64,000 bases of DNA, from NCBI GenBank assembly GCA_041660505.1, contig JBAZWG010000001.1, positions 375,183 through 439,182 of the forward strand, given 5' to 3'. Under the pieces are notes generated by a model that made no database searches, was not told the origin of the DNA, and saw only the letters and a program-made list of their open reading frames with translations. The DNA is from Minisyncoccota bacterium (lineage in GTDB: Bacteria > Patescibacteriota > Minisyncoccia > Phycocordibacterales > JACRKE01). Below are positions 264 through 47,779 of the stretch, one piece after another. The position numbers were made by a program, and so were the translations under genes. Each line of letters begins with the position of its first letter. The stretch's first letter is position 1.

Positions 264-857
264 TCAGTGAGGCATATCGAGCAGACTTGTCGGAAAGTAG
301 GGTAAAACGTCCTCATCTCTTAACAAGATCGTTTCATCGGAAGCCTTGGTTAAACCGAATGACTGCCCCTTTGACACGCCGACATATACAACCTTCTTAT
401 GTAAAGAACGCACCTCTTCAACCGCGGGAACCAAATCAGTATCCGAACTTAACAGATATGCAACATCATAGCTGTCATTAATCGCAAAGCGAATCATCTC
501 AACTGCAACGCGAACGTCAACACCTTTCTCATGAAAGCTCTTGTCTGGATGTTGTATAAGGTTTCCGAGCACGACCGCAATATTTTGTTGTTGTAATTTA
601 GCAAGTAATTTTTGTTGACTTGCATACAGTTTTTCAGATTTCTCTCTATTTTGTCCGTTTTGCCTCTTCACCGCACCGATATAATATCTCATGTCGACGA
701 GTACCTGATTCTTGATTAGATGTTCTGCAAATTTTTGATATTCAAAATCAAGCAAACTTACCAGCCCAATTTTACCAAAGGTAATATCCTTGAGTTTGTA
801 GTAAAAATTATTACCATCTATGAATATCAAGGCACGATTTTTGAGTGTATCTTTCAT
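264..857 (-). CDS. NYN/LabA-like (DUF88) domain protein, predicted RNase
   Basis: 197 aa ORF. LIFIDGNNFYY…VAYLLSSDTDLVPAVEEVRSLHKKVVYVGV is the typical NYN/LabA pattern. Confidence 0.8.
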   Translation of the reverse strand: MKDTLKNRALIFIDGNNFYYKLKDITFGKIGLVSLLDFEYQKFAEHLIKNQVLVDMRYYIGAVKRQNGQNREKSEKLYASQQKLLAKLQQQNIAVVLGNLIQHPDKSFHEKGVDVRVAVEMIRFAINDSYDVAYLLSSDTDLVPAVEEVRSLHKKVVYVGVSKGQSFGLTKASDETILLRDEDVLPYFPTSLLDMPH

Positions 858-1219
858 ATAACTAAAACTGCCGTCCTGGTTTTCACCAAGAAGGCAGTGG
901 GATTAACGTGACGCAAGTATAGCCTACGTAAACCCAAAAGTCAACTTGTCTGTTGATAACCCAGAACAGACTTATTCTATCATGAAAATTTATTCCTTTC
1001 TAGAAATATGTTCCCGATCACAATTTTACAATCCGCGCGAACTCTGGTATATTGAGTGTGTTCGATATTATAATTTATTTTCGCTTTATCGCTTCTCGCA
1101 GTTGCAAACAGACATGTGTACAAAAACTCTTATTTCTAGGCTTATTTTAGGAATACTGTCGAAACGACCAATACTGGTCGCATAGCTTGCAAAGGCTCGT
1201 GGCGTGAGGCGCACGCACT

Positions 1220-2812
1220 ATGTCAACCAAATTACTGTTACTCTTGCTCGGAGGGGGCGGAGCTGTTGGTATTCTCATCGGTTATCTCATTCGCTGGGCG
1301 GTTTCGCTCACCCAGAAGGCGTCTACGGAGCTCGCGGTTAAGCAAGCTTTGCTCGACGCGCAGAAGGACGCGCAGAAGATCATTGCTGACGCGCAAAAAA
1401 TAACGATTGAGGCAGAAAAGAAAGCAGAAGTAATCACGAACGACGCCAAGAAAATCGAGGCGGAGGCGAAGCGTGCCGAAGCCGATGTAAAACGAGCAGA
1501 GGCAGAAAGTAAGAATGAATTAAAGAAGCTCGAGGAGCGCTTGGTAAAGAAAGATGAGACCTTGGACAAACGCCAGTCTGATATCGATAAAGAAGCCGAA
1601 GCGATTAAAGAAAAAATTGTCGAGGTCAAGAATATCAAAGAGAACGTTAAGAAGCTTGAAGAAGACAAATTAAAAGAACTCGAGAAGGTAGCCAAACTTT
1701 CGCAAGAAGAGGCCAAAACGGTCATAATGCACGACATCGAGGCCAAGTATGAAGGCGACTTCCTCTCTCGAATGCAAAAATTGGAGCGTGACGGCAATGA
1801 ACGCTTGGACCATAAGGCCAAGGACTTGCTCGCGAATATCATCCAGCGTGTGGCATCTTCGACAGCATCAGACGTCATGACGACGACGGTGCAGATACCG
1901 TCTGATGACCTGAAGGGTAAGATAATTGGTAAAGAAGGACGCAATATCCGCGCCTTCGAACGTGCCGCAGGCGTTGACTTAATCATAGACGACACGCCGG
2001 GTACAATAGTTATCTCTAGCTTCGACCCTATTCGCCGAGCGATTGCAAAATATGCGCTTGAGGCTCTTATATTGGACGGCAGAATTCAACCGGCAAAGAT
2101 TGAGGAGCAAATCGAGAAATCGAAAGCGGAAGTTAATAAAATAATCAAAGAAAGCGGCGAGAAGGCAGCGTATGAAGCGGGTGTAATCAATCTCGACCAA
2201 AGGATCTTGCTTATCCTCGGCCGTTTGCACTTCCGCACAAGCTACGGTCAGAATGTTTTGACCCATTCGGTAGAAATGGCGCACATTGCGGCAATGTTGG
2301 CCGAAGAACTCGGAGGCGATGTAGCTATCGCCCGCGCCGGAGCCCTGCTCCACGACATCGGTAAGGCAGTTGATCATGAAGTGGTCGGCACGCACGTGGA
2401 GATTGGCCGCAGAATCTTGCAAAAGTTCGGCGCCGATGAGCGCATCATTAAGGCGATGCAGTCGCATCATGAAGAATACCCTTACGAGACAATAGAATCT
2501 ATCATTGTGCAGACGGCTGACGCTATCTCTGCCGGCCGCCCGGGTGCTCGCCGCGACAGCGTAGAGAACTACCTTAAGCGTTTGCACGACCTAGAAGACC
2601 TTGCAACGTCATTCAAGGGCGTAGAAAAGGCCTATGCCATCCAAGCTGGCCGCGAGGTACGCATCTTCGTCACCCCGGACCAAGTGAGCGATATTGAGGC
2701 TAAGACTATGGCCCGCGAGATCGCGACAAGAGTGGAACAAGAGCTCAAATACCCAGGAGAAATCAAGGTCAACGTTATCCGAGAGCTCCGCGCCGTCGAA
2801 TACGCAAGATAA
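1220..2812 (+). CDS. rny: Ribonuclease Y
   Basis: N-terminal TM segment, long coiled-coil, KH domain (GKIIGKEGRNIRAFERAAGVDLIIDDTPGTIV), HD domain (HSVEMAHIAAMLAEELG…LLHDIGKA). 530 aa. Confidence 0.95.
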   Translation: MSTKLLLLLLGGGGAVGILIGYLIRWAVSLTQKASTELAVKQALLDAQKDAQKIIADAQKITIEAEKKAEVITNDAKKIEAEAKRAEADVKRAEAESKNELKKLEERLVKKDETLDKRQSDIDKEAEAIKEKIVEVKNIKENVKKLEEDKLKELEKVAKLSQEEAKTVIMHDIEAKYEGDFLSRMQKLERDGNERLDHKAKDLLANIIQRVASSTASDVMTTTVQIPSDDLKGKIIGKEGRNIRAFERAAGVDLIIDDTPGTIVISSFDPIRRAIAKYALEALILDGRIQPAKIEEQIEKSKAEVNKIIKESGEKAAYEAGVINLDQRILLILGRLHFRTSYGQNVLTHSVEMAHIAAMLAEELGGDVAIARAGALLHDIGKAVDHEVVGTHVEIGRRILQKFGADERIIKAMQSHHEEYPYETIESIIVQTADAISAGRPGARRDSVENYLKRLHDLEDLATSFKGVEKAYAIQAGREVRIFVTPDQVSDIEAKTMAREIATRVEQELKYPGEIKVNVIRELRAVEYAR

Positions 2813-2989
2813 TTCAGAACAGAATTGAAGAATTTAGGAATCTGGGAATTTTAGGTCTTTAATTCCTTAATTCTCTAATTCCTAAATTCTGTCCAAGCTG
2901 TTCACAGCTTCCTTGCGCTAAAATATGGCTTAATATATACTGGCCTTAGCAATCTAAAGGTCGAAGACTCTATAAGTTAATTTATTTCT

Positions 2990-3262
2990 ATGAACAAAGT
3001 AGATTTAGTCGGTGTTGTTCACGAGAAATTGGGCGGGACGAAAGTCGCAGCAGAAGAAGCGGTCAATGCCCTCTTCGATGCGGTCGTTCACTCACTCAAG
3101 AAAGGTGATGAAGTTTCTATCGCCGGACTTGGTATCTTCTCGGTCAAACAGCGTGCAGCTCGTTCTGCCCGCAACCCTCGCACAGGCGCGATAGTTCAGG
3201 TGCCTGCGATGAAGATTCCTAAATTCCGCGCCGCAAAGGCTCTTAAAGAAGCCGTGCGATAG
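2990..3262 (+). CDS. hup: DNA-binding protein HU
   Basis: 90 aa. MNKVDLV…GFGSF…R.ARNPRTG is the canonical HU/IHF fold signature. Confidence 0.95.
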   Translation: MNKVDLVGVVHEKLGGTKVAAEEAVNALFDAVVHSLKKGDEVSIAGLGIFSVKQRAARSARNPRTGAIVQVPAMKIPKFRAAKALKEAVR

Positions 3263-3302
3263 CCGGAATCTGTTTTCGAAAATTGTTTTCCACTTACAAA
3301 AG

Positions 3303-3330
3303 TCCGCCGATGAGGCGGGTTTTTGTTTTT
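3303..3330 (+). terminator. Rho-independent terminator after hup
   Basis: ccgcc-gatga-ggcgg followed by gtttttgttttt. Confidence 0.65.
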
Positions 3331-3346
3331 ATGCTAAAATAAGTTT

Positions 3347-5017
3347 ATGTTTAGAACCGTATTTATTTCTTTACTCGTTGGTATTACCGGCGTTGCGGCC
3401 GCGTTCACGATACAACCCGCTTCTTCCGCACCACAACAGCTTGAGGCCCAAAAATCTGAATCTGTTACTGCTTCACCACATACGACACAGAATGCATTGT
3501 CGCAATTTCAGAGTGTGGCATGGAATACGCCTAACCGGCAAAATCAAAACGAACAGAATGTTTTTGATGCATTCTCGCCATTTATTCAAACCTTCTCAAA
3601 ATCTATTTCTTTATCTGATAAGTCGACCTCCACACTACAGCCAACTTCATTACCCAAAAATGTTCTAGCGATTGAACCGCTGGGCTCGCTCGCGCGTTAT
3701 ATGAACTCGCTCGCACCCGCGGGAAACGCGCCTTTTGCAAGCGCCTTGTCCGAAACACAGGTACGAAATACGTTGAACAGTGGCGGTATTTCTATCAATG
3801 CACAACCGCCACAAACAATCGTGGCGGGGCTTGGACAGCAGGCAGTTGACGGACTGTTGTATTTTCACAATCAAGCCGGATCCTTTACCGTTACCGGCGG
3901 GACCGAGGGCGGCCACCAGACTCACGGTACACAAAATACCTATACCGAAAACAACGTCGATATTGGAAAAGGGACGGGCCTCGATACGTTTATTGAAAAC
4001 AACAAGATAAGCACACGGCCTGGAACAAACGGCACAATATACAAACTAAAAGACGCAAATGGCCAAAATATCGAGTGTATGGACGAGGGCAATCACTGGC
4101 ACTGTATGTTCAACCCCGACGCTCGCGGGATAAATCAATCGACAGACCAGCCCGACGGCGACTCCGGAGACGGCGATGGAAGTGGTGAAAGCGGTTCTGG
4201 TGGCGGAACCAGTAGCGCCTATTGTGGTGATGATTACTGGTCAGATGAAGACATTTGTTGTTACAAGCATACTGGTCCTGCCGGCCCGCCCGGGCAATAT
4301 GATGGCGTGACGACGTGCAATGCTGGTTTTAAAATGGCTGGCGACCCACCTATCCCTACTCCGGTACCAAATTGCGGTCGTGACGGCAAACTCTGCGATC
4401 TGGAACTCACCTTGGCACAACCCGGAGGCAAACTTTTGTCCTGTTTATTCGCTGCCTGCCCGCCCAAGCGTAATGCTATCTGGGACCCGCAAACTAAACG
4501 CTGTGGCTGTGACGACGGAGGCAGTGGAATCGGGGTGGCCAGTGGCGGAGGTAGTGGAGATAACGGCACCGAGGCACCATCAACTTCTGCGACTGGAGAT
4601 CAACAAGGGAACACGGACAAATTGGCCGCACGGGGCGTAACATTGCAAAACGGCGTCCAAGTTGGCGGTCTAACCGACAACACCATGAATGGTATCGATA
4701 AATTTGCCGCAGACTATAAGGCGAATACCGGTAACACTCTGGAGATGAGCGCTGGCACCAACGGCACGCACGACGCGAATACACCAAGTGGCTTCACTCA
4801 TGCAAACGGCGGTAAGACCGACTTCAGTACCGGCGGGGATAACACCAACAGCGATCTTGCGCGTTATATTAAGAACCCCGATAACGGTTTCACCTTTGAC
4901 CACAACGCTTCTGACGGTCCGGTCTATCATGACGGAAACGGCAACATCTTTTATCTAGAAAATTCTGGCACTGCACCACACTTGGATGTCGCCTGGGCTG
5001 GGAACAATACAAGGTAG
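3347..5017 (+). CDS. Secreted hypothetical protein (signal peptide, Gly/Asn/Thr-rich, Cys-rich central segment)
   Basis: 556 aa ORF. N-terminal hydrophobic signal MFRTVFISLLVGITGVAAA. Low-complexity composition, no recognisable domain. Confidence 0.55.
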   Translation: MFRTVFISLLVGITGVAAAFTIQPASSAPQQLEAQKSESVTASPHTTQNALSQFQSVAWNTPNRQNQNEQNVFDAFSPFIQTFSKSISLSDKSTSTLQPTSLPKNVLAIEPLGSLARYMNSLAPAGNAPFASALSETQVRNTLNSGGISINAQPPQTIVAGLGQQAVDGLLYFHNQAGSFTVTGGTEGGHQTHGTQNTYTENNVDIGKGTGLDTFIENNKISTRPGTNGTIYKLKDANGQNIECMDEGNHWHCMFNPDARGINQSTDQPDGDSGDGDGSGESGSGGGTSSAYCGDDYWSDEDICCYKHTGPAGPPGQYDGVTTCNAGFKMAGDPPIPTPVPNCGRDGKLCDLELTLAQPGGKLLSCLFAACPPKRNAIWDPQTKRCGCDDGGSGIGVASGGGSGDNGTEAPSTSATGDQQGNTDKLAARGVTLQNGVQVGGLTDNTMNGIDKFAADYKANTGNTLEMSAGTNGTHDANTPSGFTHANGGKTDFSTGGDNTNSDLARYIKNPDNGFTFDHNASDGPVYHDGNGNIFYLENSGTAPHLDVAWAGNNTR

Positions 5018-5020
5018 CAC

Positions 5021-6196
5021 TTAATTATACACTCGCTTGATGAGCGGGTTGATGCGCGTTATTATTTCGTAATTTATCGTGCCGGCTTTTTCGGCTAGTT
5101 CGTCAGCGGTAATCGTCTGGCCAATTAATTCTACTTCGTCTCCTATTTTAATATTAGGAATATTGGTAACGTCTATCGATATTATATCCATCGAGACTCG
5201 GCCAATTACTTTCGCTCGTTTGCCGTTAATCGCCACAAATGCTTTTGATGACAGCGCTCGCGGATAGCCGTGCCAATAACCTATCGGGCAAACGGCAAGT
5301 TTGGTACCGGGCGGGACTGTCTCTGTATGGTCATAGCCTACACTGCCACCGTCTTTAAGCGTTTTAATTTCTGAAATAATCGTGTGCCACGAAAGCGCCG
5401 GCTTGAGTGTGATATTCGTGCCGATTGCATCCCGCACCGTCGGATCAGACCAGAGGCCGTACATGCTTATCCCGCTGCGGATCATATCGAGATGTGCATC
5501 GGAAAAAGTTAGAGTCGGCCCGGATGCCGACGCGTGTGTTATGGGCGTAAATCCGGCATTTTTAAATTGCGAAATAATTTCTGCAAAGATTTTCAGTGCC
5601 AAATCTACTTGTTCTGTCGTGCCATTGTGCCTGCCGAACGGGAAGTGCGTATAAACTCCCTCGACAATAACATTGGGTACTTCGTTTTTTAAATAGGCAA
5701 TAACTTGCGGAATTTCTTCCGGCAAGAATCCCTGCCGGTGCATCCCCGTATCTATTTTAAGGTGAGTTTTTAGTTTGTAGTTTTTAGTTTTTAGAATTTC
5801 TAAATGCTCAAGATGCGAAACGGTGATACTGACATCATTCTCGATTGCTTCAGTAATACGTGACGGCAATGTGTAGCCGAGAATTAAGATCGGTAGCGTA
5901 ATACCTTCTTCGCGCAAGCGCACCGCCTCGGTGATAGAGTCTACGCCTATCCAATCCGCGCCAAGGTCTTGCATTAATTTAGAATATTCCCAAAGCCCGT
6001 GTCCGTAGGCGTTAGATTTAGCGACAGCCATAAGCTTAATTTTGCCAACAAGGTCTCTCCTCGAGGAGGAGCTCTGCGACGGGAGAGGTGAGTCCTTGTT
6101 GTCGATAAGCTTACGAAACGTATCGTAGTTATGCCGAATGGCAGACGTATCCACCTCGACCCAGGTGCGCACGTCGGTTGGTTTGTTTGAGTTCAT
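5021..6196 (-). CDS. alr: Alanine racemase (carries an in-frame palindromic-element insertion)
   Basis: AVAKSNAYGHG PLP-binding motif and overall alr architecture. Insertion encodes KDSPLPSQSSSSRRDL. Confidence 0.9.
   Translation of the reverse strand: MNSNKPTDVRTWVEVDTSAIRHNYDTFRKLIDNKDSPLPSQSSSSRRDLVGKIKLMAVAKSNAYGHGLWEYSKLMQDLGADWIGVDSITEAVRLREEGITLPILILGYTLPSRITEAIENDVSITVSHLEHLEILKTKNYKLKTHLKIDTGMHRQGFLPEEIPQVIAYLKNEVPNVIVEGVYTHFPFGRHNGTTEQVDLALKIFAEIISQFKNAGFTPITHASASGPTLTFSDAHLDMIRSGISMYGLWSDPTVRDAIGTNITLKPALSWHTIISEIKTLKDGGSVGYDHTETVPPGTKLAVCPIGYWHGYPRALSSKAFVAINGKRAKVIGRVSMDIISIDVTNIPNIKIGDEVELIGQTITADELAEKAGTINYEIITRINPLIKRVYN
6050..6097. repeat. Family-1 palindromic element (GAGGAGAGACCTC / GAGGTSWSTCCTC arms), in-frame inside alr
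   Basis: aaggtctctcctc…gagaggtgagtcctt, an imperfect inverted repeat shared with 7 other copies. Confidence 0.8.
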
Positions 6197-6264
6197 ACCA
6201 ATAGTATAAGCATTTTTGCCATGAAACGCGAAATTTGATACTATGCAGTCTTGATTGATATTGC

Positions 6265-6335
6265 GCGGGCATAGTTTAGCGGTAAAATGTCAGTTTTCCA
6301 AACTGAGGTTCCGGGTTCGACTCCCGGTGCCCGCA
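6265..6335 (+). tRNA. tRNA-Trp (anticodon CCA)
   Basis: Cloverleaf by hand: acceptor GCGGGCA/TGCCCGC, anticodon loop TTCCAAA, T-loop GGTTCGACTCC. Confidence 0.85.
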
Positions 6336-7658: not shown

Positions 7659-7685
7659 AGGTTATGTATGATATACTAGTGAGAT

Positions 7686-16136: not shown

Positions 16137-16883
16137 CTATTCTGGAGTAAGACCCCAAAGAATGTCGAAGATAACCTTAAAGGCAGTGACTATTTCCGGA
16201 ATAGCAATAATAATAGCTACAGGATTTGTATGGCTCAAAACCAGCACTTTATCATCATGGATGTCCAAACTATCTTGGAATTGATATCCTTCCGGCAGGT
16301 AGCGTGATTCGCGCAATAGTTGCGGGTCGGCAGGGTCACCGCTACGTGAGTCGGCAGTCAGTAACAATTTCGTACTGATTCCCCGCGCACTGCGCTCATA
16401 ACGAAACTTAAGAAAAAAATCTGGGTCGATTGATTCCCATGTCATCGAGGAAATAATCCGATACCAGCGATCTTTTTTCGATTTTGTCTCATATTCATCC
16501 AAAAGTGATTCGTAGAAAGCTGTAATCTCCTTCTTCCCTTCCAGGTATCTGATTCCCAGCTTCTCGGTTTTAATTTTTTCCTGAGTCGGCAAGGTTGGAA
16601 TAAGAGTCTCGAATAGATTCAGCTTCCTGGAAAAAGCACGCGCCAACCACTCCGGCCGTTGGGCGGCATAATTTCGCTTCCCATTCTTAAAATAGACATT
16701 AACCACACCTTTTTCTGCTAATCCCTGCAAGATAGGGTAGATTGTCGTGCGCCTTAGGCCGATCTCTTTGGCCACCGCCGACGCCTGCGAGGCACCGAGT
16801 TTAAGAAGGGCCAAATAGGCCTGTGCCTCTTGCTCGCCCAACCCTAGATTCTTCAATGCCCTGGTTTGTTCGTGATAAGTCAT
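16137..16883 (-). CDS. TrmB-family transcriptional regulator (copy 1), divergent from the Cys-rich protein gene
   Basis: N-terminal wHTH LGLGEQEAQAYLALLKLGASQASAVAKEIGLRRTTIYPILQGLAEKGVV typical of TrmB, plus C-terminal TrmB-like domain. Confidence 0.8.
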   Translation of the reverse strand: MTYHEQTRALKNLGLGEQEAQAYLALLKLGASQASAVAKEIGLRRTTIYPILQGLAEKGVVNVYFKNGKRNYAAQRPEWLARAFSRKLNLFETLIPTLPTQEKIKTEKLGIRYLEGKKEITAFYESLLDEYETKSKKDRWYRIISSMTWESIDPDFFLKFRYERSARGISTKLLLTADSRSGDPADPQLLRESRYLPEGYQFQDSLDIHDDKVLVLSHTNPVAIIIAIPEIVTAFKVIFDILWGLTPE

Positions 16884-32758: not shown

Positions 32759-33583
32759 ATGGGCGCAATATACAAAGAGAATCTGGTTCAGATAGGCTTA
32801 TCCGATAAGGAGGCGGTGGTCTATGAGGCCTTGCTCGGAGGTAAAGAGAACAGTATCGGCCAGTTATTGCATAAAATCCCCGAGATTAAGCGCCCCAATA
32901 TGTATGCCCTGCTCTATAGCCTTAAAGGCAAGGGGTTGGTGCAAGAGGTAGAGAAAAAGGGCAAAAAGGTCTTCACGCCGGAATCGCCCCAAAAGCTTGT
33001 CGACTTCGTCGATGCCAGAGGCTTCGAATATGAGCAAGCCAGGACAAATCTCGATTCCGCTCTCCCCTCTCTCATCTCGCAGTTCAATCTAGCCTCCGGC
33101 AAGCCGAACGTGCAGTTTTATGAGGGCGAGAAGGGTATGGAGAAAGTGGTCTTTGACTCGCTCACCTCAAAAACTGAAATACTTTCTTACGTCGACCACG
33201 AAGCGGTTGAGAAGTACTTCGCATCGTTCAACTCTCGCTATGTGGCCGAGCGCATAAAGAAAAATATTAAAAAGAAAATCATTGCGCTTGATACGCCCAG
33301 TATTCGCGAGGCGGCTAAGACGAGATATAATCCGGAATACACCGATGCCCGTGTTATCAGTGCCAGTAAATATGCGTTTGCGACAGTAATGCAAATCTAC
33401 GACGGCAAGGTGTCGTATCAAACATTAGACGAGAAGCAACTGGTCGGCGTAATAATTCAGGACGAGCGCATTTATAAAATGCATAAAGCTCTTTTCGAGT
33501 ACACGTGGGAGACGGCAGAGAATATTATGCCGCCTTCAACTCTTCCTGCTCTACCGACGCCTGATCTTCCCGCAGTAATGTAA
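32759..33583 (+). CDS. TrmB-family transcriptional regulator (copy 3)
   Basis: N-terminal wHTH IGLSDKEAVVYEALL…IPEIKRPNMYALLYSLKGKGLV plus C-terminal TrmB-like domain. 274 aa. Confidence 0.75.
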   Translation: MGAIYKENLVQIGLSDKEAVVYEALLGGKENSIGQLLHKIPEIKRPNMYALLYSLKGKGLVQEVEKKGKKVFTPESPQKLVDFVDARGFEYEQARTNLDSALPSLISQFNLASGKPNVQFYEGEKGMEKVVFDSLTSKTEILSYVDHEAVEKYFASFNSRYVAERIKKNIKKKIIALDTPSIREAAKTRYNPEYTDARVISASKYAFATVMQIYDGKVSYQTLDEKQLVGVIIQDERIYKMHKALFEYTWETAENIMPPSTLPALPTPDLPAVM

Positions 33584-37021: not shown

Positions 37022-39388
37022 TTGATGAGGCCCGGGCCGAAACCAAAGATATACATTTCTACTGAGTGGTCTAGCAACCTCGCTTATGCAGTTGGTCTTA
37101 TCACTGCTGATGGCTGTCTGTCAAAGGATGGCCGCCATATTGACTTTACATCAAAAGACCCAGATCAAATAGAAACCTTTATCAGGTGCCTCGGACTTCA
37201 CTCACTTGTTAGACCAAAGAAATCCGGTGCTGGAAGGTTTGCATTTCGAACCCAGTTTGGGAATGTATCGTTTTACAGATTTCTATTAGGCATTGGACTA
37301 ACGCCCGCAAAATCGAAAACTATTTCGAAACTTGAAATTCCCGACGAATATTTCTGGGATTTCATGCGTGGATATTTCGATGGTGACGGCACGAGCTTTT
37401 CGTATTTTGATCCGGTATTTCCTAAAAGCTATCGTTTTTATGTTGCTTTCGCTTCGGCAAGTGAGCCATATCTACTTTGGCTACAAGAGAAGGCATATAG
37501 GTCCGCAGGGTTAAAAGGCTACATTAACAGAGGCGTTAACCCTTCAAGCCTACAACTCAAGTATGCGAAGAAAGAAGCAATAGTCTTATGTCAAAAAATG
37601 TATTATGATGATAGCGCTCCCAGACTCCAAAGAAAATACGAGAAAATCTTGGATTCGATGAGCATTATTAACAGCAAACGCCGGGGTGGTGAAATTGGTA
37701 TACACGCAGCGTTCAGAACGCTGTGGGGGCAACCCCATGGAGGTTCAAGTCCTCTCTCCGGCACTTTTAACTCATTTCACGTGAAAAATAAGAAAGAATC
37801 TCCAGCTTACTATATCCCCTCCCATGTTCTGGGGGTTGTAACTACTTTACAAAAGGCCGGCTTCGAGGCATATCTCGTCGGTGGCTGTGTGCGCGATATA
37901 TTGATGGAGAACAAGCCAAAAGACTGGGATGTTACGACAAACGCCCGCCCGGAGCAGATCCAAGCCCTATTTAACGAGACTTTCTATGAAAACGAGTATG
38001 GCACGGTCGGCGTCGTGGTAGAAGACCTTTCACGTGAAAAGCTCAATATCGTTTCACAAGAAACGTTTGATGAGCTTTCACGTGAAAGCATGGAAGCCTT
38101 AGAGGTCGAACCTCGGGCTCCCAGAGGTTCGACCTCGGGCGCAGACCCAAGCCCGAAAGAGGTGATCGAGGTTACACCTTATAGGCTAGAAACCAAGTAT
38201 TCCAACTTTCGCCATCCGGACGCTGTCACCTTTAGCACCAGTCTGGGGGACGACCTGAAACGCCGGGATCTGACCATCAATGCCATCGCTTATGACCCCA
38301 ATAGCCCTAAAGGACAGTTTATAGACCCCTTTAACGGTCTAAAGGACATAAAGGACATGGTAATCCGCGCCGTAGGAGAGCCCTCGGACCGCTTCTGCGA
38401 GGATGCTTTGCGCATGATGCGTGCGGTGCGCCTGGCCGCCCAGCTCGGCTTTATGATTGACCCTGCGACCGAGCAAGCGATTGTTGCGAACAAGGCGCTT
38501 ATCACTAAGATAGCGGCCGAGCGTATCCATGACGAACTTATGAAGCTTTTAAATACCGAGTACGCGGTTGATGGCATTAGGTATCTAAAGATTACCGGCC
38601 TTCTTGAACTTATAATCCCTGAACTTCTTGAGGGGATAGGCATAGAGCAGAGAGGGGAGCATATCTATGACGTCTGGGAGCATAACCTCAAGTCGCTCGA
38701 ACACGCCGTCAAGAAGGGTTGGCCATTTCACGTGAGACTTGCAGTGCTGTTACACGACGTGGGCAAGCCGCGTACGCGCTTGCGCGATGAGGAGAGGCAA
38801 ATCTGGACATTCCATGGCCATGATGTGGTCGGTGGCAAGATGACCAAAAAGATACTTGAACGGCTCAAATTTTCACGTGAAATGATTGATAATATTTCTA
38901 AACTAGTGCGTTATCATCTTTTCTTCTCCGATACCGATAAAATCACGCTTTCTGCCGTACGCCGGATGATTCGCAACGTCGGCGCTGATTTGATATGGGA
39001 TTTAATGAAGGTGCGCCAGTGCGACAGAATAGGCACGGGCCGGCCCAAAGAAAGTCCTTATAGACTGCGCAAATACGAAGCGATGATAGAAGAGGCAATG
39101 CGCGATCCAATATCGGTGCAGATGTTAAAGATTGACGGCGCGAAGATAATGGAAATAGGGGAGATGGACCCCGGGCCGAAGATTGGCTGGGTGTTGCACG
39201 CCTTACTTGAGGAAGTACTAGAAGACCCGGCTAAGAATACGACAGAGTATCTGGAGACTCATACTAAAAAATTATTGGCACTTTCTGACAAGGAATTACA
39301 AGAACTCGGTGAAGCGGGAAAGGAGAAGAAGTCAGGGCTTGAAGAAGCGGCTATAGAAGAAATCAACAAGAGACACTACGTGAAGTAA
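37022..39388 (+). CDS. cca: CCA-adding enzyme (tRNA nucleotidyltransferase, HD domain) with an N-terminal LAGLIDADG homing-endonuclease-like domain and internal repeat-derived insert
   Basis: Residues ~1-210: two LAGLIDADG motifs (LAYAVGLITADGCL; FMRGYFDGDGTSF). Residues ~270-788: pol-beta nucleotidyltransferase (GGCVRDILM…DWDVTT), RRDLTINA, HD domain (LLHDVGKP). One continuous 788-aa ORF. Confidence 0.85.
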   Translation: MMRPGPKPKIYISTEWSSNLAYAVGLITADGCLSKDGRHIDFTSKDPDQIETFIRCLGLHSLVRPKKSGAGRFAFRTQFGNVSFYRFLLGIGLTPAKSKTISKLEIPDEYFWDFMRGYFDGDGTSFSYFDPVFPKSYRFYVAFASASEPYLLWLQEKAYRSAGLKGYINRGVNPSSLQLKYAKKEAIVLCQKMYYDDSAPRLQRKYEKILDSMSIINSKRRGGEIGIHAAFRTLWGQPHGGSSPLSGTFNSFHVKNKKESPAYYIPSHVLGVVTTLQKAGFEAYLVGGCVRDILMENKPKDWDVTTNARPEQIQALFNETFYENEYGTVGVVVEDLSREKLNIVSQETFDELSRESMEALEVEPRAPRGSTSGADPSPKEVIEVTPYRLETKYSNFRHPDAVTFSTSLGDDLKRRDLTINAIAYDPNSPKGQFIDPFNGLKDIKDMVIRAVGEPSDRFCEDALRMMRAVRLAAQLGFMIDPATEQAIVANKALITKIAAERIHDELMKLLNTEYAVDGIRYLKITGLLELIIPELLEGIGIEQRGEHIYDVWEHNLKSLEHAVKKGWPFHVRLAVLLHDVGKPRTRLRDEERQIWTFHGHDVVGGKMTKKILERLKFSREMIDNISKLVRYHLFFSDTDKITLSAVRRMIRNVGADLIWDLMKVRQCDRIGTGRPKESPYRLRKYEAMIEEAMRDPISVQMLKIDGAKIMEIGEMDPGPKIGWVLHALLEEVLEDPAKNTTEYLETHTKKLLALSDKELQELGEAGKEKKSGLEEAAIEEINKRHYVK
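37775..38902. repeat. Cluster of five TTTCACGTGAAA 12-bp palindromes inside the CCA gene
   Basis: Copies at 37775, 38028, 38076, 38726 (tttcacgtgaga) and 38891, in two different codon phases. Confidence 0.8.
38103..38140. repeat. Family-3 paired palindrome element, in-frame inside the CCA gene
   Basis: gaggtcgaacctcggg-ctccca-gaggttcgacctcggg, encoding LEVEPRAPRGSTSG. Confidence 0.7.
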
Positions 39389-39445: not shown

Positions 39446-39453
39446 AAAATCGT

Positions 39454-41707: not shown

Positions 41708-42208
41708 TCAACATGAACTGCTCGTTCTCTCGTCATCGTATTCCTGCATGGCGTCCTCGATTTCCATATCACACTCGGCCTTGAATTCGACCTGATTCGT
41801 GATTTTGGTAATCTCGGAGTAATCCATTGAGAGGAAATAGCGGTGTACGAAAGATTCGAGAAGCTCGTGCCGAAGCCTGCCCGGGTTATGCTCAGAGTTG
41901 AGCACCGGCCAAGATGGACGGTAGTACCTCTCCCAATCCCAGCTGCGGTTCTCGAATTCCAGAGCGAAAAGTCGGGCGAAGCCCTTCAATTCGACCCAGG
42001 AAATCGTGAAGTAGACGCTGCCGGTCTTGTTTGGGTCTACAACTACATTGTTGCACCCAACGTTGGGATCCATGAAGTAAACGGTAAGGCCCCACCAATG
42101 TTCGCTAAGGCAAAGCATCAAGGTCTTGAGAACCTCGTCTCGCCAGGCGCGCCGCTTGCGTTCCTGAAGCAGGTTTGCCTTGATTCGAAACAATTCCAAC
42201 TGGTCCAT
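41708..42208 (-). CDS. Hypothetical protein (GC-rich)
   Basis: 166 aa ORF with SD ggaggaggaaattcATG. Confidence 0.5.
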   Translation of the reverse strand: MDQLELFRIKANLLQERKRRAWRDEVLKTLMLCLSEHWWGLTVYFMDPNVGCNNVVVDPNKTGSVYFTISWVELKGFARLFALEFENRSWDWERYYRPSWPVLNSEHNPGRLRHELLESFVHRYFLSMDYSEITKITNQVEFKAECDMEIEDAMQEYDDERTSSSC

Positions 42209-42518
42209 GAATTTCCTCCTCCGGCCGGAGGCCGGGGTTTGGAGTCCAAAGTCTTTTCAGACTCCGTTGCCAAGAAAAAGCATATTTTTAGCCATGCCTT
42301 GGTAACGAAGTCTGGTAGTACGTTTTAAATGAACTTATTGGAATATATAATAACACTATATCAGTATATTTGTCAAGTATCAGTCGCCCACACCTCCTTT
42401 AAGTATCCTGGAAAATAAGCGTGGCGCAAGATTACCGGAAGTATTTGGCATAGTTTGCGTTCTTATAAGCTTTGGTGTATGATAACGTCATATTACAATA
42501 TCATATAATAAAAATACC

Positions 42519-42743
42519 ATGAGTACATTATCTGTTCCATTGACTCCGCAGCTTGAGGCGTTCATCAACAGTATGGTGAAGCAGGGCAAGGCTGAAAATA
42601 AGGCCCAGGTGGTGCGGCAGGCCATCGCGAAGATGGAGGAAGACGAGGAAACCAATGAGGTACTGCTCGCCTACCGCGAGATAGAAGAGGGTAGGGGCCT
42701 GCGTGGAGACCTACGCGAGATTGCGAAGAAATTCAAGAATTAG
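42519..42743 (+). CDS. Ribbon-helix-helix antitoxin (ParD/CopG-like)
   Basis: 74 aa; paired with and stop-start adjacent to the downstream RelE/ParE-like ORF. Confidence 0.55.
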   Translation: MSTLSVPLTPQLEAFINSMVKQGKAENKAQVVRQAIAKMEEDEETNEVLLAYREIEEGRGLRGDLREIAKKFKN

Positions 42744-42744
42744 T

Positions 42745-43002
42745 ATGGATATCCAATACGCGCCTAAGTTCATTCGCCAATTCAATAAATTAGATAAGCA
42801 CCTGCAAGCTGAGGTATACGAAAAAATAGAGGTTTTCAAATCCGGACAGAACACCGAATCACTAAGAATTCATAAACTGAATGGCAAACTAAAAAATGAA
42901 CTTGGTTTTTGGGTAAACTTCCGTATCAGAATTCGCTACGTTAAAAAGCCAGACGGAGGGTACTGGTTCCTCCGCGTTGGAGACCATAATATCTACGATT
43001 AA
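42745..43002 (+). CDS. RelE/ParE-family toxin
   Basis: ~85 aa from MDIQYAPKF…; C-terminal …NELGFWVNFRIRIRYVKKPDGGYWFLRVGDHNIYD matches the RelE/ParE pattern. Confidence 0.6.
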   Translation: MDIQYAPKFIRQFNKLDKHLQAEVYEKIEVFKSGQNTESLRIHKLNGKLKNELGFWVNFRIRIRYVKKPDGGYWFLRVGDHNIYD

Positions 43003-43011
43003 CTAAAATCA

Positions 43012-43038
43012 AAAACCGCCAATTTTTTGGTGGTTTTT
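43012..43038 (+). terminator. Rho-independent terminator after the TA pair
   Basis: aaaaaccgccaa-ttttt-tggtggtttttgtg. Confidence 0.7.
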
Positions 43039-43088
43039 GTGTTGCCCATGAGTCCTCCTTTCGAAATTTACTCCTGGGCGGGAAAGAA

Positions 43089-43472
43089 CTAGGCCTGCTC
43101 GTCGGCAGGCAGAGATTGGCCTCGTGTGAGCGGGCGACAGATGCCGAGCACAACCTTGACGCGTTCCGTTGTAGCGGCGAGAAGTGCCCGGAAGATGTAC
43201 TCGGCCACCCGCCAGTCAATCTGTTGGCCGTTGGCCCAAGCCCGGCAAGTAGCCTCTGCACTCTGTGCAGAGGCTACGTCGTACAGGTACTCGAGGCCTG
43301 GTTTCCCCGTTCGCTCGAGTTCGCGGGCAATATTAACCACGTCCTTGGAACTAGCGTCTGCCAAGACTGCGAGCAGACGCCTCCGTTCTTGGTCGTTTCT
43401 GATCAGAGTAAGGACGAGCGCAGCATAAGCCCGACGATCGTCCAAGTCCGGAATTATCGGCCGATAAACCAC
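43089..43472 (-). CDS. Hypothetical protein (GC-rich, GTG start)
   Basis: 127 aa ORF; acaaggaggtgaaagGTG extended SD. Confidence 0.45.
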   Translation of the reverse strand: MVYRPIIPDLDDRRAYAALVLTLIRNDQERRRLLAVLADASSKDVVNIARELERTGKPGLEYLYDVASAQSAEATCRAWANGQQIDWRVAEYIFRALLAATTERVKVVLGICRPLTRGQSLPADEQA

Positions 43473-43572
43473 CTTTCACCTCCTTGTAACCGTTACAAGC
43501 ACACCGTCTGTAATACTAGCATGCAAAAAAAGATTGACAATGAGCCCTGAAGAAAAAGCAAGGGTGTTTTAT

Positions 43573-45324
43573 CTACGCCACTTCGGCGTTGTAGCAGCTC
43601 TCGCAGTATACTATCTCCGGTTTATTGGGCGAATACGCTGTTCTGATATCCTTACCGCACTTCGCGCATTGCCTATCGTATAATTCCAGTTTACTGCGCT
43701 GTTCGAGGCGCTCGTAATGCCGACAGGCGGGGCAAAGATGCGGCACGGGTATATTATTATCGCGATAAAACTGCAGCTCCGCGGGAATAATTTTGAATGC
43801 GGTTGCGCATTGCTGCGAGCAGTTACCTGCATGTTCACAGCCGATAATCTCATTAAGTATCGTATCCGGGGTATCTTTGATTCTGTCAGGAATATTTTCT
43901 GGTTTGAGCGTAATGCTGAAACTTTTTTCTGCAGACTTGCGCCAGGCGAACTTCATTGCCGCCGCTTCTGCGGCGTTTAATGGAAAGTAGTCAAAGGCTA
44001 TTGTCTCGTTGTAAGCCCAAGGAGAGAACTCGGGCGGGAAGAACTCGCCATATGAATAGACGCGCCCTTTCGTATCTTGATACGGCACATCTTTCATATG
44101 CTGAATGATTTTCGGCACGAGCGCTTGATACTCCTCTCTACTATACTGCTTGTTCAGGATGCAATACTCCTTTTTGCGCAGGCCAACACAACCGAATAAA
44201 TTGGCCGAGCTGGAACAGAGCACAGAATACTCAATGTCATGCACACCTTCTTGAACATAAAGACAGAATTTAATACGGTTTGTATCGATACCGCAGGCGC
44301 AACATTCATAATCTAGTTGATTGTTGCCGCCCCAGATAGAGAAATCGTAGCAATCTTTACTGCCCGGAATCTCTTGCATATATTGGCAATAACGCAAATC
44401 TTCGCCCTCGCGGATCAAGAAACTATCTTTAACATTCTTACTGTGACTGATATAGCTGCCACTCACATCACTGTTGTGCGAGCCGACCAGATATTTGTTC
44501 GGGAACTTGAGCCAGAATTCATGTGCCTGCTTCTTTATCTTTTCTAAATTCTGATGCGAATTCCAATCAAGCTCTGCAAGTTTCTTAAAATACTCTTCTT
44601 TCGAATACGACTCGTTCCATATATGATATTTCTGATTGCGCAAACCGACACAGCCGACGCAGTCTGAACAGCCGACGCAATTTTTACTGAAGAGCATGTT
44701 TACGCAGCTTTCGCATTCGGCAGAGAAGAAAGTTTTTGCGCATGACGTGAGCCAGAAGCTTTCATAACATTGCTCTGATTTTCCTAAATGCGAAACATCT
44801 ACAGAATCTAGCGTATGCGTGAGCCCGTTTGAGTACATACAGTTTTCCGAATCACTGCAATTAAAAGCGAGATAGCAATTCTTTGGATTAGTAAAGTGAT
44901 TAACATAATCACTTCCAACACCGTTCACCACGTTCAAGTTCTTCATCGGCACATTCTTCCAAAGATCTCGCACCTGTTCCAAGAATGGCTTATTGAAGTC
45001 AATATCGACTCCATATTCCATCGGGTCCCAAGCGTCAGAAAGCCACACATCTTTCTCATACACTTTGTATCCTGACTCTTGCGAATACATCGAGAAGATA
45101 TCTTTGCCCGTAGCGGCACTTTTGATTTTATACAAATTTCGCTCGTTGCGAAAAGCAAAGCGGCGTTGGGCGCGACACAGAGAGCACCAAGTCGGCGGGG
45201 GAACATCTACCTTTGCGTAGAAAGTAAAATCTTGCACGTCTATAACAAAACTCTTTTTGCAACTCTGGCACACTTTTGTTTCACTGTTTGTTTGCGTATT
45301 CATATCAACATTCTGCATTACCAA
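43573..45324 (-). CDS. Large Cys-rich multi-zinc-ribbon protein, paralog B
   Basis: 583 aa; same terminal CxxC…CPxCR modules and central Cys-repeat region as 17013-18704. Confidence 0.75.
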   Translation of the reverse strand: MVMQNVDMNTQTNSETKVCQSCKKSFVIDVQDFTFYAKVDVPPPTWCSLCRAQRRFAFRNERNLYKIKSAATGKDIFSMYSQESGYKVYEKDVWLSDAWDPMEYGVDIDFNKPFLEQVRDLWKNVPMKNLNVVNGVGSDYVNHFTNPKNCYLAFNCSDSENCMYSNGLTHTLDSVDVSHLGKSEQCYESFWLTSCAKTFFSAECESCVNMLFSKNCVGCSDCVGCVGLRNQKYHIWNESYSKEEYFKKLAELDWNSHQNLEKIKKQAHEFWLKFPNKYLVGSHNSDVSGSYISHSKNVKDSFLIREGEDLRYCQYMQEIPGSKDCYDFSIWGGNNQLDYECCACGIDTNRIKFCLYVQEGVHDIEYSVLCSSSANLFGCVGLRKKEYCILNKQYSREEYQALVPKIIQHMKDVPYQDTKGRVYSYGEFFPPEFSPWAYNETIAFDYFPLNAAEAAAMKFAWRKSAEKSFSITLKPENIPDRIKDTPDTILNEIIGCEHAGNCSQQCATAFKIIPAELQFYRDNNIPVPHLCPACRHYERLEQRSKLELYDRQCAKCGKDIRTAYSPNKPEIVYCESCYNAEVA

Positions 45325-45355
45325 GCGTAATGAGTCAATTCTTGTCAGACAATTG

Positions 45356-45383
45356 TTGACAGAACACTGACAACGAGTATAAT
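45356..45383 (+). promoter_or_regulatory. Consensus sigma70-type promoter of TrmB-like gene copy 2 (apparently leaderless)
   Basis: TTGACA-16 nt-TATAAT with the ATG 7 nt after the -10. Imperfect palindrome tgtcagacaattgttgaca overlaps the -35. Confidence 0.6.
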
Positions 45384-45389
45384 ATCATT

Positions 45390-46148
45390 ATGATTAAGCC
45401 AATCTTAAGTAAGCTCGGTTTGAGTGAGAGCGAGATCGCTGTGTACAGTCAGGTGGTAAGGCATCGGCTTTGCACACCGGCACTGATTGCCCGCGAGACC
45501 AAGTTAAATAGACCGACGGTATACAACATCTGTAAGAAATTGGTCGCCCGCGGCCTACTTATTGAGGATTTGGGTGATAAGACCTTAAAATTACTGCCTA
45601 CAGCGCCAGATGAACTCGCTTCTATATTAAAACGGGACGAAGAGGAACTTAAAAATAAAGCACTGGTGCTGGAGCAATTGGGTAATGAGCTCGCGCTTAT
45701 GAAGAGCAGCAGGACGTACCCCGTGCCAAGAGTACGTTTTATAGAACAGGATCGGCTCAATGCGTATATGCATACACAAACGCCGACGTGGAACACGAGC
45801 ATCGGTAATTACGATAATATCTGGTGGGGATTCCAAGACCATACTTTTGTGGAGCAGTACAAAGAGTATATTTTGTGGTTCTGGAGGACAGCTGATGAGA
45901 GTATTAGCCTTAATTTACTTAGCAATAGCGCGCCAATAGAGGAGGAGATGAAAACAGAGAATTTCACACGTCGCCACATAAAGCCGTGGGACAAGGGCAT
46001 GATGTTTAGTGCCACGACATGGGTATTAGGCGACTATCTCGTTATGATTGTAACCGACAAAGAGCCGCATTACCTTGTAGAAATCCACGACGAACGCATG
46101 GCGGGGAACTTTCGCGAGTTGTTTAAGAACATTTGGGGATTGATTTAG
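45390..46148 (+). CDS. TrmB-family transcriptional regulator (copy 2), divergent from Cys-rich paralog B
   Basis: N-terminal wHTH LGLSESEIAVYSQVV…IARETKLNRPTVYNICKKLVARGLL. Confidence 0.75.
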   Translation: MIKPILSKLGLSESEIAVYSQVVRHRLCTPALIARETKLNRPTVYNICKKLVARGLLIEDLGDKTLKLLPTAPDELASILKRDEEELKNKALVLEQLGNELALMKSSRTYPVPRVRFIEQDRLNAYMHTQTPTWNTSIGNYDNIWWGFQDHTFVEQYKEYILWFWRTADESISLNLLSNSAPIEEEMKTENFTRRHIKPWDKGMMFSATTWVLGDYLVMIVTDKEPHYLVEIHDERMAGNFRELFKNIWGLI

Positions 46149-46246
46149 ACCAGAGGCTCACAGCTGTTTACCGAGTCGGCGTAGGGCCACGCTCGTACTC
46201 GAGTGGGGTAAAGACGCGAGGGAGACAGCTGTGAGCCTCTGGTCTT
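46149..46246. repeat. Large perfect inverted repeat (20-bp arms, 58-nt loop)
   Basis: gaccagaggctcacagctgt…acagctgtgagcctctggtc immediately after the TrmB-like stop codon. Confidence 0.7.
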
Positions 46247-46945
46247 GAGTAAAACAATAAAGGCTTGCGGGGGTTGGGAACTACCGTTTCATGGTACTTC
46301 ACACTCCCCACAAGCCTTTTGTTCTGCTTGCGCAGACGTTGTTCGTTAATCACGCTATCAAGCTTCCCTAACATTCCTTCGTCTTCACAAAACTCTTTCC
46401 GAACTCAAATCGTCGGAGAACGAGTTGTGATGTCCTTTAGCTCTGACCTATAAAAAATTGAGCTTGGACAACGACTTAGGCAACGTGTGCCTTATTCATG
46501 ATTACCGTGCAACGAACTATGACTGATAGAAGTATCTCATACCAGTTATAAAGGACAAGTGGATAACTTTTTATGTCCTACAGATATATCGCGTCAAGTA
46601 ACGCTAGACTAAAGCGTAGATATGTGCTTAAATGATGTCGGCAAAGTACCTCTCTCGAGCGACGGGCATGGCACTCCGTAACTGCCGTGGATGCGGTCAG
46701 GCTTGAATATCGGCCTATTTTGTCGAGATTCAGGCCACTATGTGCAAACCTCGAGCCGCATATCGAGGACCTGTTCTGTGGAGCACCCCAAAGCTCCGTC
46801 GGCCAAAAAGCCGAGCAGACCGGGCGCACAGGCGTCAAACAGAGAGGTGGGGCCAGTACGGCTGGGGAACATCGTGTTCCCCAGCCGTTTCCACTTCTAG
46901 CGCCCAAGAAAGCCTTATTTGCAAAATGCCTCTTTATATAGTACA

Positions 46946-47218
46946 ATGTTGCCCATGTTAACAAAAACTAAAAAAGCAAAGGTTATTAAGAAAGTTCAGT
47001 CACACGAGACCGACACAGGCTCGGCCGCTGTGCAGGTTGCCATTTTATCAGAACGCATTGTTGAGCTCACAACGCATTTGAAAAAGAACAAGAAGGACAA
47101 TCACTCGCGAAGAGGATTACTCCAGATGGTCGCCGATCGCCGTTCCCACCTCAAATATTTAGAAAAAAAGGACCCCAAGGTCCACAAGAAACTGGTAAAA
47201 GAGCTTTCGCTCGCCTAG
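46946..47218 (+). CDS. rpsO: 30S ribosomal protein S15
   Basis: …TGSAAVQVAILSERIVELTTHLKKNKKDNHSRRGLLQMVADRRSHLKYL is the S15 signature. Start ambiguous (ATG 46946 or 46955), no SD. Confidence 0.9.
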   Translation: MLPMLTKTKKAKVIKKVQSHETDTGSAAVQVAILSERIVELTTHLKKNKKDNHSRRGLLQMVADRRSHLKYLEKKDPKVHKKLVKELSLA

Positions 47219-47236
47219 TTTCTCTAACATTTTAAT

Positions 47237-47779
47237 ATGTCCATAATCAAACACAAAGCCCAGCGTGTCGGGGTGTTTATCGATACGCAAAATATGTATC
47301 ACAGCGCGCGCAACCTTTACAACGCGCGCCTAAACTTCGGTGCCGTGCTCGAAGACGCCGTCGCCGGACGCTTTCTTGTCCGCGCTATCGCTTACGTTAT
47401 TACCACAGAATCGGCCGAGGAACAGCCTTTCTTCGAAGCGTTGGTTAAGCTCGGTATCGAGACCAAGACCAAAGACCTCCAGATATTCTCGAGCGGTGCC
47501 AAGAAGGCCGACTGGGACGTCGGCATAGCCATGGACGCCGTAAAAATGGCTCCACGCCTAGACGCTATTATCTTGGTAGCAGGGGATGGCGACTTCGTCC
47601 CGATGGTGGAATATCTAAGGGCCGAGACCGGCGCCCAAGTAGAAGTGGTGGCCTTCGGCAAGACCACGTCCGGCAAACTCCGCGAGGCGGCCGACGACTT
47701 CATCGACCTCGGCGAGAATCCTGATCGTTATTTAATACGCCCAACTAACCGCAGAACATATGCAAAAAAAGGAGTATAA
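47237..47779 (+). CDS. NYN/LabA-like domain protein inserted between rpsO and pnp
   Basis: 180 aa; VGVFIDTQNMY…DAIILVAGDGDFVPMVEYLRAETGAQVEVVAF is the typical NYN pattern. Overlaps the pnp start by 20 nt. Confidence 0.8.
   Translation: MSIIKHKAQRVGVFIDTQNMYHSARNLYNARLNFGAVLEDAVAGRFLVRAIAYVITTESAEEQPFFEALVKLGIETKTKDLQIFSSGAKKADWDVGIAMDAVKMAPRLDAIILVAGDGDFVPMVEYLRAETGAQVEVVAFGKTTSGKLREAADDFIDLGENPDRYLIRPTNRRTYAKKGV

Follow-up and report, generated by a model that had tools for sequence, protein, structure and literature searches.

A stand-alone NYN-domain gene held between rpsO and pnp in Patescibacteria, a candidate housekeeping ribonuclease

In the rpsO-pnp operon of Escherichia coli, RNase III cuts a hairpin in the RNA between the gene for ribosomal protein S15 and that for polynucleotide phosphorylase (PNPase), and thereby sets PNPase levels. 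We analysed a 64,000-nucleotide (nt) stretch of DNA, the window, from a Minisyncoccota bacterium of the Patescibacteria or Candidate Phyla Radiation (CPR), Candidatus Paceibacterota (GenBank assembly GCA_041660505.1, contig JBAZWG010000001.1, positions 375,183 to 439,182 of the forward strand). Here the two genes keep the strand and order of the E. coli-type operon but enclose a third gene, NYN2, which encodes a stand-alone NYN-domain protein and predicted nuclease. The likeness extends to RNA structure in many relatives, which carry a structured RNA just 5' of pnp; the differences lie in the nuclease gene itself and, in the clade of the window, in a leader that is gone and genes that overlap. 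An RNA-processing gene directly behind a small ribosomal-protein gene has a familiar counterpart in rpmH-rnpA, where the gene for the RNase P protein follows, and often overlaps, that for L34. This arrangement resembles rpsO-NYN2 by analogy only, as the proteins are unrelated and no evidence ties NYN2 to RNase P. The idea that NYN2 is itself a protein-only RNase P, by analogy with PRORP and HARP, was set aside, since no sequence evidence supported it.

The protein family is already known as PF01936/COG1432, as are NYN proteins as RNases in RNA processing. Its LabA-type group has been listed as predicted RNases of unknown function since 2006 (PMC5499597; "function unknown" also in PMC11127020). 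Metal-dependent ribonuclease activity of the PF01936 type is proven for MARF1 and for the CRISPR-associated NYN protein of Bacteroides fragilis only. MARF1 is described as a non-specific endonuclease of single-stranded RNA (ssRNA; PMC6294520). The B. fragilis enzyme is a Mn2+-dependent, sequence-non-specific ssRNA endonuclease that is inactive as the D13A mutant, and Chi and White equated its residues D13/D118/D143 to D14/D92/D115 of Protein Data Bank (PDB) entry 2QIP and to D358/D426/D452 of MARF1 (PMC11346440). Characterised NYN enzymes cut ssRNA and not, by preference, duplexes (PMC11346440). Our literature search found no paper that links NYN proteins to Patescibacteria, CPR, Parcubacteria, DPANN or rpsO-pnp, and the strongly conserved rpsO-NYN2-pnp setting reported here is undescribed in the literature searched.

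NYN2 scores 122.5 bits against PF01936 (gathering cut-off 24.2). Its closest solved structure by sequence, and the sole related one, is VPA0982 of Vibrio parahaemolyticus (2QIP; E 1.4e-24), a PF01936 protein of the LabA-like NYN.COG1432 group that is, like NYN2, a single domain of about 165 residues. The two are about 30-40% identical and have the D...N, DWD and GDGD motifs in common, but VPA0982 has no known function or rpsO/pnp link, whereas NYN2 belongs to a distinct, CPR-confined clade with an archaeal sister clade. An AlphaFold2 (AF2) model of NYN2 matches 2QIP with template modelling (TM) scores of 0.80-0.89 and the MARF1 NYN domain with about 0.6-0.7 among the top Foldseek matches, and shows a PIN-like alpha/beta fold that, as in 2QIP, has no helical insert after strand 2. 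Residues D16, D94 and D117 of NYN2 align to D14, D92 and D115 of 2QIP. Together with N19, D92 and D119 they are invariant in 27 CPR homologues of NYN2, and all six are at least 97% conserved over 71 CPR and archaeal sequences. The MARF1 NYN domain (5YAA, 6FDL) and the B. fragilis NYN protein have this fold and these three catalytic aspartates, at 14-18% identity to NYN2; MARF1 also has RRM and LOTUS domains and the B. fragilis enzyme lies in a type III locus, whereas NYN2 is stand-alone and encoded at a ribosomal-protein/PNPase locus. By sequence and modelled fold, NYN2 has every feature of a PF01936 NYN nuclease and is predicted to be an active one.

More specific family assignments did not hold for NYN2, nor for a second NYN protein of the window, NYN1. 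Their scores against the NCBIfam archaeal NYN "hypothetical equivalog" TIGR00288, 26.8 bits for NYN2 and 35.1 for NYN1, stay far below its cut-off of 178.45, and a Pfam scan at E<=0.01 returned PF01936 only, with no match of either protein to the YacP/Rae1 family PF05991. Rae1/YacP of Bacillus subtilis, a small ribosome-dependent endoribonuclease of the PIN-like/NYN group encoded among translation-related genes, provides a precedent for a ribosome-linked NYN protein (PMC11127020, PMC5499597). It differs from NYN2 in Pfam family and in the residues behind the first catalytic Asp, which are TQN in NYN2 (D16-T17-Q18-N19) and not the GYN described for YacP (PMC5499597). NYN2 weakly matches the NYN/HEC-09 defence-candidate profiles of PADLOC, and its context is one of housekeeping genes; PADLOC pointed to no specific family, the HEC-09/NYN similarities being generic. 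The only domain fusions in distant NYN2-like representatives were coiled-coil or low-complexity extensions.

The first-pass annotation of the window had placed NYN2 between rpsO and pnp, overlapping the start of pnp by 20 nt, and both the sequence and the Pfam matches confirm this placement (Table 1). We therefore asked how far the position is kept in relatives, taking the best 80 NYN2 loci from one scan of species-representative genomes and identifying their neighbours by tblastn with the window proteins. These loci come mostly from the Parcubacteria group/Minisyncoccota (Paceibacterota, Nomura-, Kaiser-, Azam-, Buchanan-, Magasanik-, Uhr-, Sungi- and Tagabacteria). Some metagenome-assembled genomes (MAGs) among them, the products of automatic assembly, carry the labels "Gammaproteobacteria" or "Saccharibacteria", which we did not trust because their S15 and PNPase similarities resemble those of the other loci.

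The S15 gene lies immediately 5' of NYN2 on the same strand in 78 of the 80 loci, and the PNPase gene lies 3' of it in 69, several of the others being cut by contig ends. A position that recurs in 78 of 80 relatives is not due to chance. The co-oriented rpsO-pnp order of the E. coli type is thus present in the window and in 69 relatives, with NYN2 in between. With each start taken as the ATG closest to the alignment-expected start, the gap between rpsO and NYN2 is negative, the frames overlapping, in 31 of 78 loci and below 50 nt in 48, and that between NYN2 and pnp is typically 75-270 nt. The closest relatives of the window (L120-L124; NYN2 81-91% identical) have its arrangement exactly, including the 20-nt overlap. 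The rpsO-NYN2 pair is also kept in loci where the downstream sequence examined shows no pnp; NYN2 is followed by an RNase HI-like gene in L001 and by a coiled-coil gene in L005. Because the pair persists where no pnp was found and its frames often overlap, we regard rpsO-NYN2 as the stable unit, set inside an older rpsO-pnp pair and linked more tightly to rpsO than to pnp.

The sequence of NYN2 is also very strongly conserved. Across 56 genomes with all three genes complete, median all-against-all identity was 61.4% for NYN2, 54.0% for S15 and 48.2% for PNPase, and NYN2 identity exceeded that of S15 in 90% of genome pairs and that of PNPase in 99%. The all-against-all design lessens the bias that arises from having chosen loci by the similarity of their NYN2 to that of the window. 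NYN2 evolves more slowly than either S15 or PNPase. The family comprises more than 8000 clusters at 90% identity and only 194 at 50% identity with E<1e-30.

Outside Patescibacteria, the nearest relatives of NYN2 are archaeal proteins that are 49-58% identical to it (Woesearchaeota, Nanoarchaeota and Thermoplasmatota, by source names). A rough neighbour-joining tree, which carries no support values, separates the CPR sequences from the archaeal ones as sister clades, and conservation over the two reaches at least 97% at 50 positions. One locus (L041, gene 5001-5534) lies on a contig that is truly archaeal, as it also encodes PolB and an archaeal-type TIM, and the L041 protein groups with the archaeal clade. 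Six archaeal loci (L041, L125-L129) show four arrangements, in which the gene lies 3' of malate dehydrogenase, 5' of thioredoxin, or overlaps an MMR_HSR1 GTPase gene with NAC and Sec61-beta nearby; the only neighbour seen repeatedly is a downstream thioredoxin gene, in two Woesearchaeota loci. Many proteins of the archaeal clade (among P0391-P0509) bear long, disordered tails rich in lysine and serine.

In the window, rpsO, NYN2 and pnp are co-oriented, only 18 nt separate the rpsO stop codon from NYN2, and all three seem to be transcribed as a single compact unit. All promoters and terminators named here are consensus matches. The rpsO start is probably the ATG given in Table 1 and not the upstream TTG of the mechanical open reading frame (ORF), and the resulting N-terminus fits the 87-aa S15 of L120. 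The -10 element of a promoter-like site ends 7 nt 5' of this ATG, and L120 has a matching geometry (TTGCAA-17-TATGAT, 6 nt, ATG; L120:5687-5724). This spacing suggests that the rpsO transcript is leaderless or nearly so, which in the window clade would leave no 5' untranslated region for autoregulation by S15. Our consensus scan found no plus-strand terminator-like site in the rpsO-NYN2 spacer or inside NYN2; the sole such site between the promoter and the end of pnp falls within the rpsO coding sequence (47022-47039). A compact unit of this kind, with its leaderless-type promoter, 18-nt spacer, 20-nt overlap and terminator after pnp, would tie the synthesis of NYN2 to that of S15 and PNPase. 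Rfam scans of the whole window at gathering thresholds, and of 46100-47300 and the L056 operon at E<=1, returned only tRNAs and chance matches at the level of microRNAs. They revealed no S15 or pnp leader, RNase P RNA, signal recognition particle (SRP) RNA or tmRNA of known type near the operon.

The 20-nt overlap leaves no room for a pnp leader in the window clade, and the structured hairpin found directly 5' of pnp in E. coli-type operons is absent from the window. Spacers between NYN2 and pnp in relatives fell into several classes: 28 loci carry a conserved RNA motif, 12 a strong terminator-like hairpin, 5 have a spacer of less than 40 nt, and 23 have other sequence. The motif, of about 69 nt, consists of an outer stem of 9 bp and an inner stem of 7 bp around a conserved internal loop (GACAUC / UAUCG), and sits 55-90 nt 5' of the pnp ATG in many relatives of the Magasanikbacteria type. 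Compensatory changes affect 9 of its 16 pairs in a MAFFT alignment of 21 examples. The covariance model built for it, R1, gave 26 strong plus-strand matches (E at most 2e-05), all in the NYN2-pnp spacer, and 3 weaker ones, with no match in the window. The motif, which corresponds to no Rfam family (L056 operon, E<=1), may be a new cis-regulatory element for PNPase.

Hairpins and motifs vary between loci, so that the gene order has been kept across different transcript architectures. As most relatives keep a spacer 5' of pnp, NYN2 has not as a rule taken the place of the pnp leader; the gene was inserted on the upstream side of this leader, which was later lost in the window clade. The first-pass annotation had NYN2 occupying the place of the regulatory hairpin known from model bacteria. 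This describes the window clade, with its 20-nt overlap, but not most relatives, in which a spacer of 75-270 nt remains and often holds a structured leader or terminator-like hairpin.

We consider it fairly probable that NYN2 encodes an active endoribonuclease of the NYN type and belongs to the core housekeeping genes of Patescibacteria, with its expression tied to that of rpsO and, in the window, to that of pnp as well. Under this reading NYN2 would have been inserted into an ancestral rpsO-pnp pair and kept directly 3' of rpsO since. The metal-dependent, PIN-like protein would cut ssRNA at a site formed by D16, D94 and D117, aided by N19, D92 and D119, and its cuts would leave fragments for a 3'-to-5' enzyme such as PNPase to finish. 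The very slow change of its sequence, its closer tie to rpsO than to pnp and the presence of a sister clade in archaea speak for a universally conserved RNA or ribonucleoprotein (RNP) as substrate, such as rRNA, tRNA or the ribosome, no less than for bulk mRNA. The role in RNA turnover or processing that had been suggested for the NYN genes on first inspection is thus a reasonable one for NYN2, given its conserved synteny, intact active site and predicted fold.

Several observations weigh against this reading. Terminator-like hairpins stand between rpsO and NYN2 in 19 loci and 3' of NYN2 in 12, so co-transcription is not universal among the relatives. The pair rpsO-pnp is ancient, and retention of a gene inserted into it could be historical rather than functional. 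The archaeal sister-clade genes lie beside neither S15 nor exosome genes in the four distinct contexts of the six loci. Synthesis of a non-specific ssRNase in parallel with a ribosomal protein would be dangerous, and the enzyme would therefore need a control or specificity that we have not seen. [quoted passage not shown]

Other readings differ over what NYN2 would act upon. With pnp 3' of NYN2 in 69 of the 80 genomes and the two frames overlapping by 20 nt in the window clade, NYN2 might be the decay-initiating endonuclease partner of PNPase in a minimal degradosome-like pair, in which cuts in mRNA give 3' ends for PNPase; the non-specific endonucleolytic cleavage of ssRNA by MARF1 (PMC6294520) and by the CRISPR-associated NYN (PMC11346440) would suit such a role. 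We hold this partnership to be rather doubtful. The rpsO-pnp pair is older than the insertion, so that proximity to pnp may be inherited; the spacer to pnp is usually 75-270 nt, at times with a terminator-like hairpin; rpsO-NYN2 survives where the downstream sequence examined shows no pnp; the archaeal sister clade has no exosome-gene link in its four contexts; and the window genome encodes RNase Y, the usual decay initiator. The tight, often overlapping coupling to rpsO, kept where no pnp was found downstream, would agree with a nuclease of ribosome-linked processing or surveillance that is co-expressed with S15 and serves in 16S end maturation, in trimming of pre-tRNA or rRNA, or in Rae1-like cleavage. 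NYN2 is more conserved than S15, and an archaeal sister clade that is about 53% identical, with 50 near-invariant positions, suggests a substrate common to both domains; one archaeal gene overlaps the MMR_HSR1 GTPase gene near NAC and Sec61-beta. Gene neighbourhoods have also implicated bacterial NYN proteins in tRNA and rRNA processing (Anantharaman and Aravind 2006, as summarised in PMC5499597). Such a ribosomal role is possible, and we propose it tentatively: NYN2 falls outside the YacP/Rae1 family and matches PF01936 only, the other archaeal contexts (malate dehydrogenase, thioredoxin) are unrelated to translation, and gene order beside a ribosomal-protein gene is weak evidence of function.

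By analogy with RNase III cleavage of the E. coli rpsO-pnp hairpin, which sets PNPase levels, NYN2 could serve mainly to process its own transcript, replacing RNase III at the pnp leader or intercistronic RNA, and the conserved hairpin in the NYN2-pnp spacer of 26 relatives, which covaries and has an invariant internal loop, would offer a target. This autoregulatory role is improbable, since NYN2 is still highly conserved in the window clade, which has no leader, a gene conserved to this degree, and present in archaea too, would hardly serve one transcript, and characterised NYN enzymes prefer ssRNA over duplexes (PMC11346440). It seems similarly improbable that the synteny is a frozen accident and that the function of NYN2 is unrelated to S15, PNPase or housekeeping RNA metabolism, be it defence, the salvage of nucleic acids or binding without catalysis. 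Both NYN proteins match the PADLOC NYN/HEC-09 defence-candidate profiles, archaeal contexts vary, and LabA-type NYN proteins have no proven biochemical role (PMC5499597, PMC11127020). However, that 78 of 80 loci have kept the order across deep divergence is a sign of selection, because gene order around NYN1 is poorly conserved in the same organisms; defence genes are patchy and fast-evolving, whereas NYN2 is slower than S15, and its catalytic residues are invariant. A wider proposal, speculative and on present evidence unlikely, is that NYN2 belongs with its archaeal sister clade to a core family of ribonucleases, so far unrecognised, in Patescibacteria and DPANN/Thermoplasmatota. This family would have a universal substrate, for example in small-subunit (SSU) rRNA end maturation or ribosome-coupled cleavage, and in Patescibacteria the rpsO-NYN2-pnp module and the lineage-specific pnp-leader motif would belong to the same control circuit.

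The favoured reading, NYN2 as a housekeeping endoribonuclease, concerns organisms in which RNA processing and decay are essentially unstudied. Patescibacteria and DPANN-type archaea account for much of microbial diversity, and in their minimal genomes nearly every kept gene matters. Because it evolves more slowly than a ribosomal protein, is fixed behind rpsO over deep divergence and has an intact nuclease site, NYN2 is a concrete candidate for the housekeeping RNase that is missing from these two large uncultured radiations. The rpsO-NYN2-pnp locus, together with the covarying pnp-leader motif, supplies defined RNAs on which NYN2 could be tested.

The other NYN gene of the window, NYN1, is a separate case. 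That the window holds two NYN genes was borne out by PF01936 matches for both, and the candidate catalytic residues D14, D114 and D139 of NYN1 are present and align with D16, D94 and D117 of NYN2; being just 23% identical, the two proteins are distant paralogues. NYN1 has 743 homologues, mostly of the Paceibacteria type. It matches PADLOC HEC-09 at E 1.5e-20, and its neighbours are variable and not recognisable as defence genes. Several of its homologues (P0140, P0155, P0167, P0178, P0180, P0217 and L093:3484-4401) carry a C-terminal fusion to ASCH (PF04266), a predicted RNA-binding domain.

NYN1 is indeed divergent from rny, the RNase Y gene, across a 362-nt spacer with promoter-like sites in both directions, as the first-pass annotation stated. 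We compared this arrangement with 39 loci from a metagenome scan in which NYN1 is 57-77% identical. An RNase Y gene near NYN1 was found in 0 of the 39, including relatives 74-78% identical, although at least 15 of these loci reach further than 2 kb on the side where it would lie. No other neighbour was conserved either, as no ORF cluster occurred in more than 4 of the 39. Among the 80 NYN2 loci, a NYN1 homologue was nearby in one (L019) and rny in one (L076). Because none of the 39 related loci has rny, the NYN1-rny adjacency is best read as incidental. The proposal that NYN genes co-localise with both main mRNA-decay enzymes therefore survives in one half: adjacency to rpsO (78 of 80) and pnp (69 of 80) is conserved for NYN2, and that of NYN1 to rny, the half of the original observation not to be built upon, is not.

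Table 1. Features of the two NYN loci and of neighbouring genes; coordinates are those of the window unless a locus is named
Feature	Coordinates	Strand	Evidence
NYN1, 197-aa stand-alone NYN (LabA-like) protein	264..857	-	PF01936, E 6.6e-20, 72.5 bits
NYN1-rny divergent intergenic region, 362 nt	858..1219	.	promoter-like sites in both directions
Promoter-like site TTGACT-17-TATACT	944-916	-	10/12 consensus positions
Promoter-like site TTTACA-17-TATATT	1025-1053	+	10/12 consensus positions
rny, RNase Y, 530 aa	1220..2812	+	RNase_Y_N, KH_1, HD (Pfam)
TrmB-family helix-turn-helix (HTH) regulator, one of three paralogues within 30 kb	16137-16883	-	Pfam
TrmB-family HTH regulator, second paralogue	32759-33583	+	Pfam
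TrmB-family HTH regulator, third paralogue	45390-46148	+	Pfam
rpsO promoter-like site TTTGCA-18-TACAAT	46918..46947	+	consensus match
rpsO, ribosomal protein S15, 87 aa	46955..47218 (probable ATG; mechanical ORF from TTG 46919)	+	PF00312, E 2.6e-30
NYN2, 180-aa stand-alone NYN protein with short basic C-terminal tail	47237..47779	+	PF01936, E 2.5e-35
NYN2/pnp overlap, 20 nt (pnp ATG 47760, NYN2 stop 47779)	47760..47779	+	sequence
pnp, polynucleotide phosphorylase, 703 aa	47760..49871	+	RNase_PH x2, RNase_PH_C, KH_1, S1
Terminator-like hairpin 3' of pnp	49909..49927	+	consensus scan
pnp-leader motif, examples in relatives	L056:5538-5603; L058:5502-5567; 24 further loci	+	model R1

The surroundings of the operon offered further observations. 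Upstream, the third TrmB-family gene adjoins the rpsO region and is syntenic in L120-L124. Just 3' of it, at 46147-46330, lie two tandem long hairpins (minimum free energy, MFE, -106.6 kcal/mol; z-score -10.3) without an Rfam match; the first has perfect arms of 23 bp, and the second (46252-46321) is 75-84% conserved in L120-L124. A gene-free interval 5' of rpsO, 46560-46920, looks G+C-rich by eye, folds better than shuffled sequence (z -4.9) and has no Rfam match; its counterpart in L120 holds a gene for a 432-aa PKD-domain protein. To see whether the 770-nt gene-free stretch 5' of rpsO is a decayed gene, we compared it with this L120 gene by tblastx, which showed no similarity; only one hairpin is conserved. 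The interval may represent an RNA gene not yet recognised, or what is left of a decayed one. Just 3' of pnp, two overlapping ORFs of 96 and 77 aa (49996-50516) without Pfam matches look, by eye, like an antitoxin and a RelE/ParE-like toxin. Because the gene calls that follow pnp in L120 and L123 differ in size, the pair is probably a recent insertion, as judged by gene-call sizes alone.

Among ORFs of at least about 140 aa up to 52.7 kb of the window, Pfam identified, besides rny and pnp, only one more gene of RNA-decay type, and neither RNase III nor a general clustering of RNA-decay genes was seen. This gene (37022-39388) encodes a 788-aa protein of the CCA-adding/poly(A) polymerase family in which the PolyA_pol head is matched in two stretches and LAGLIDADG_3 is found at residues 20-88. 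These matches suggest that a tRNA nucleotidyltransferase has received an intein or a homing endonuclease.

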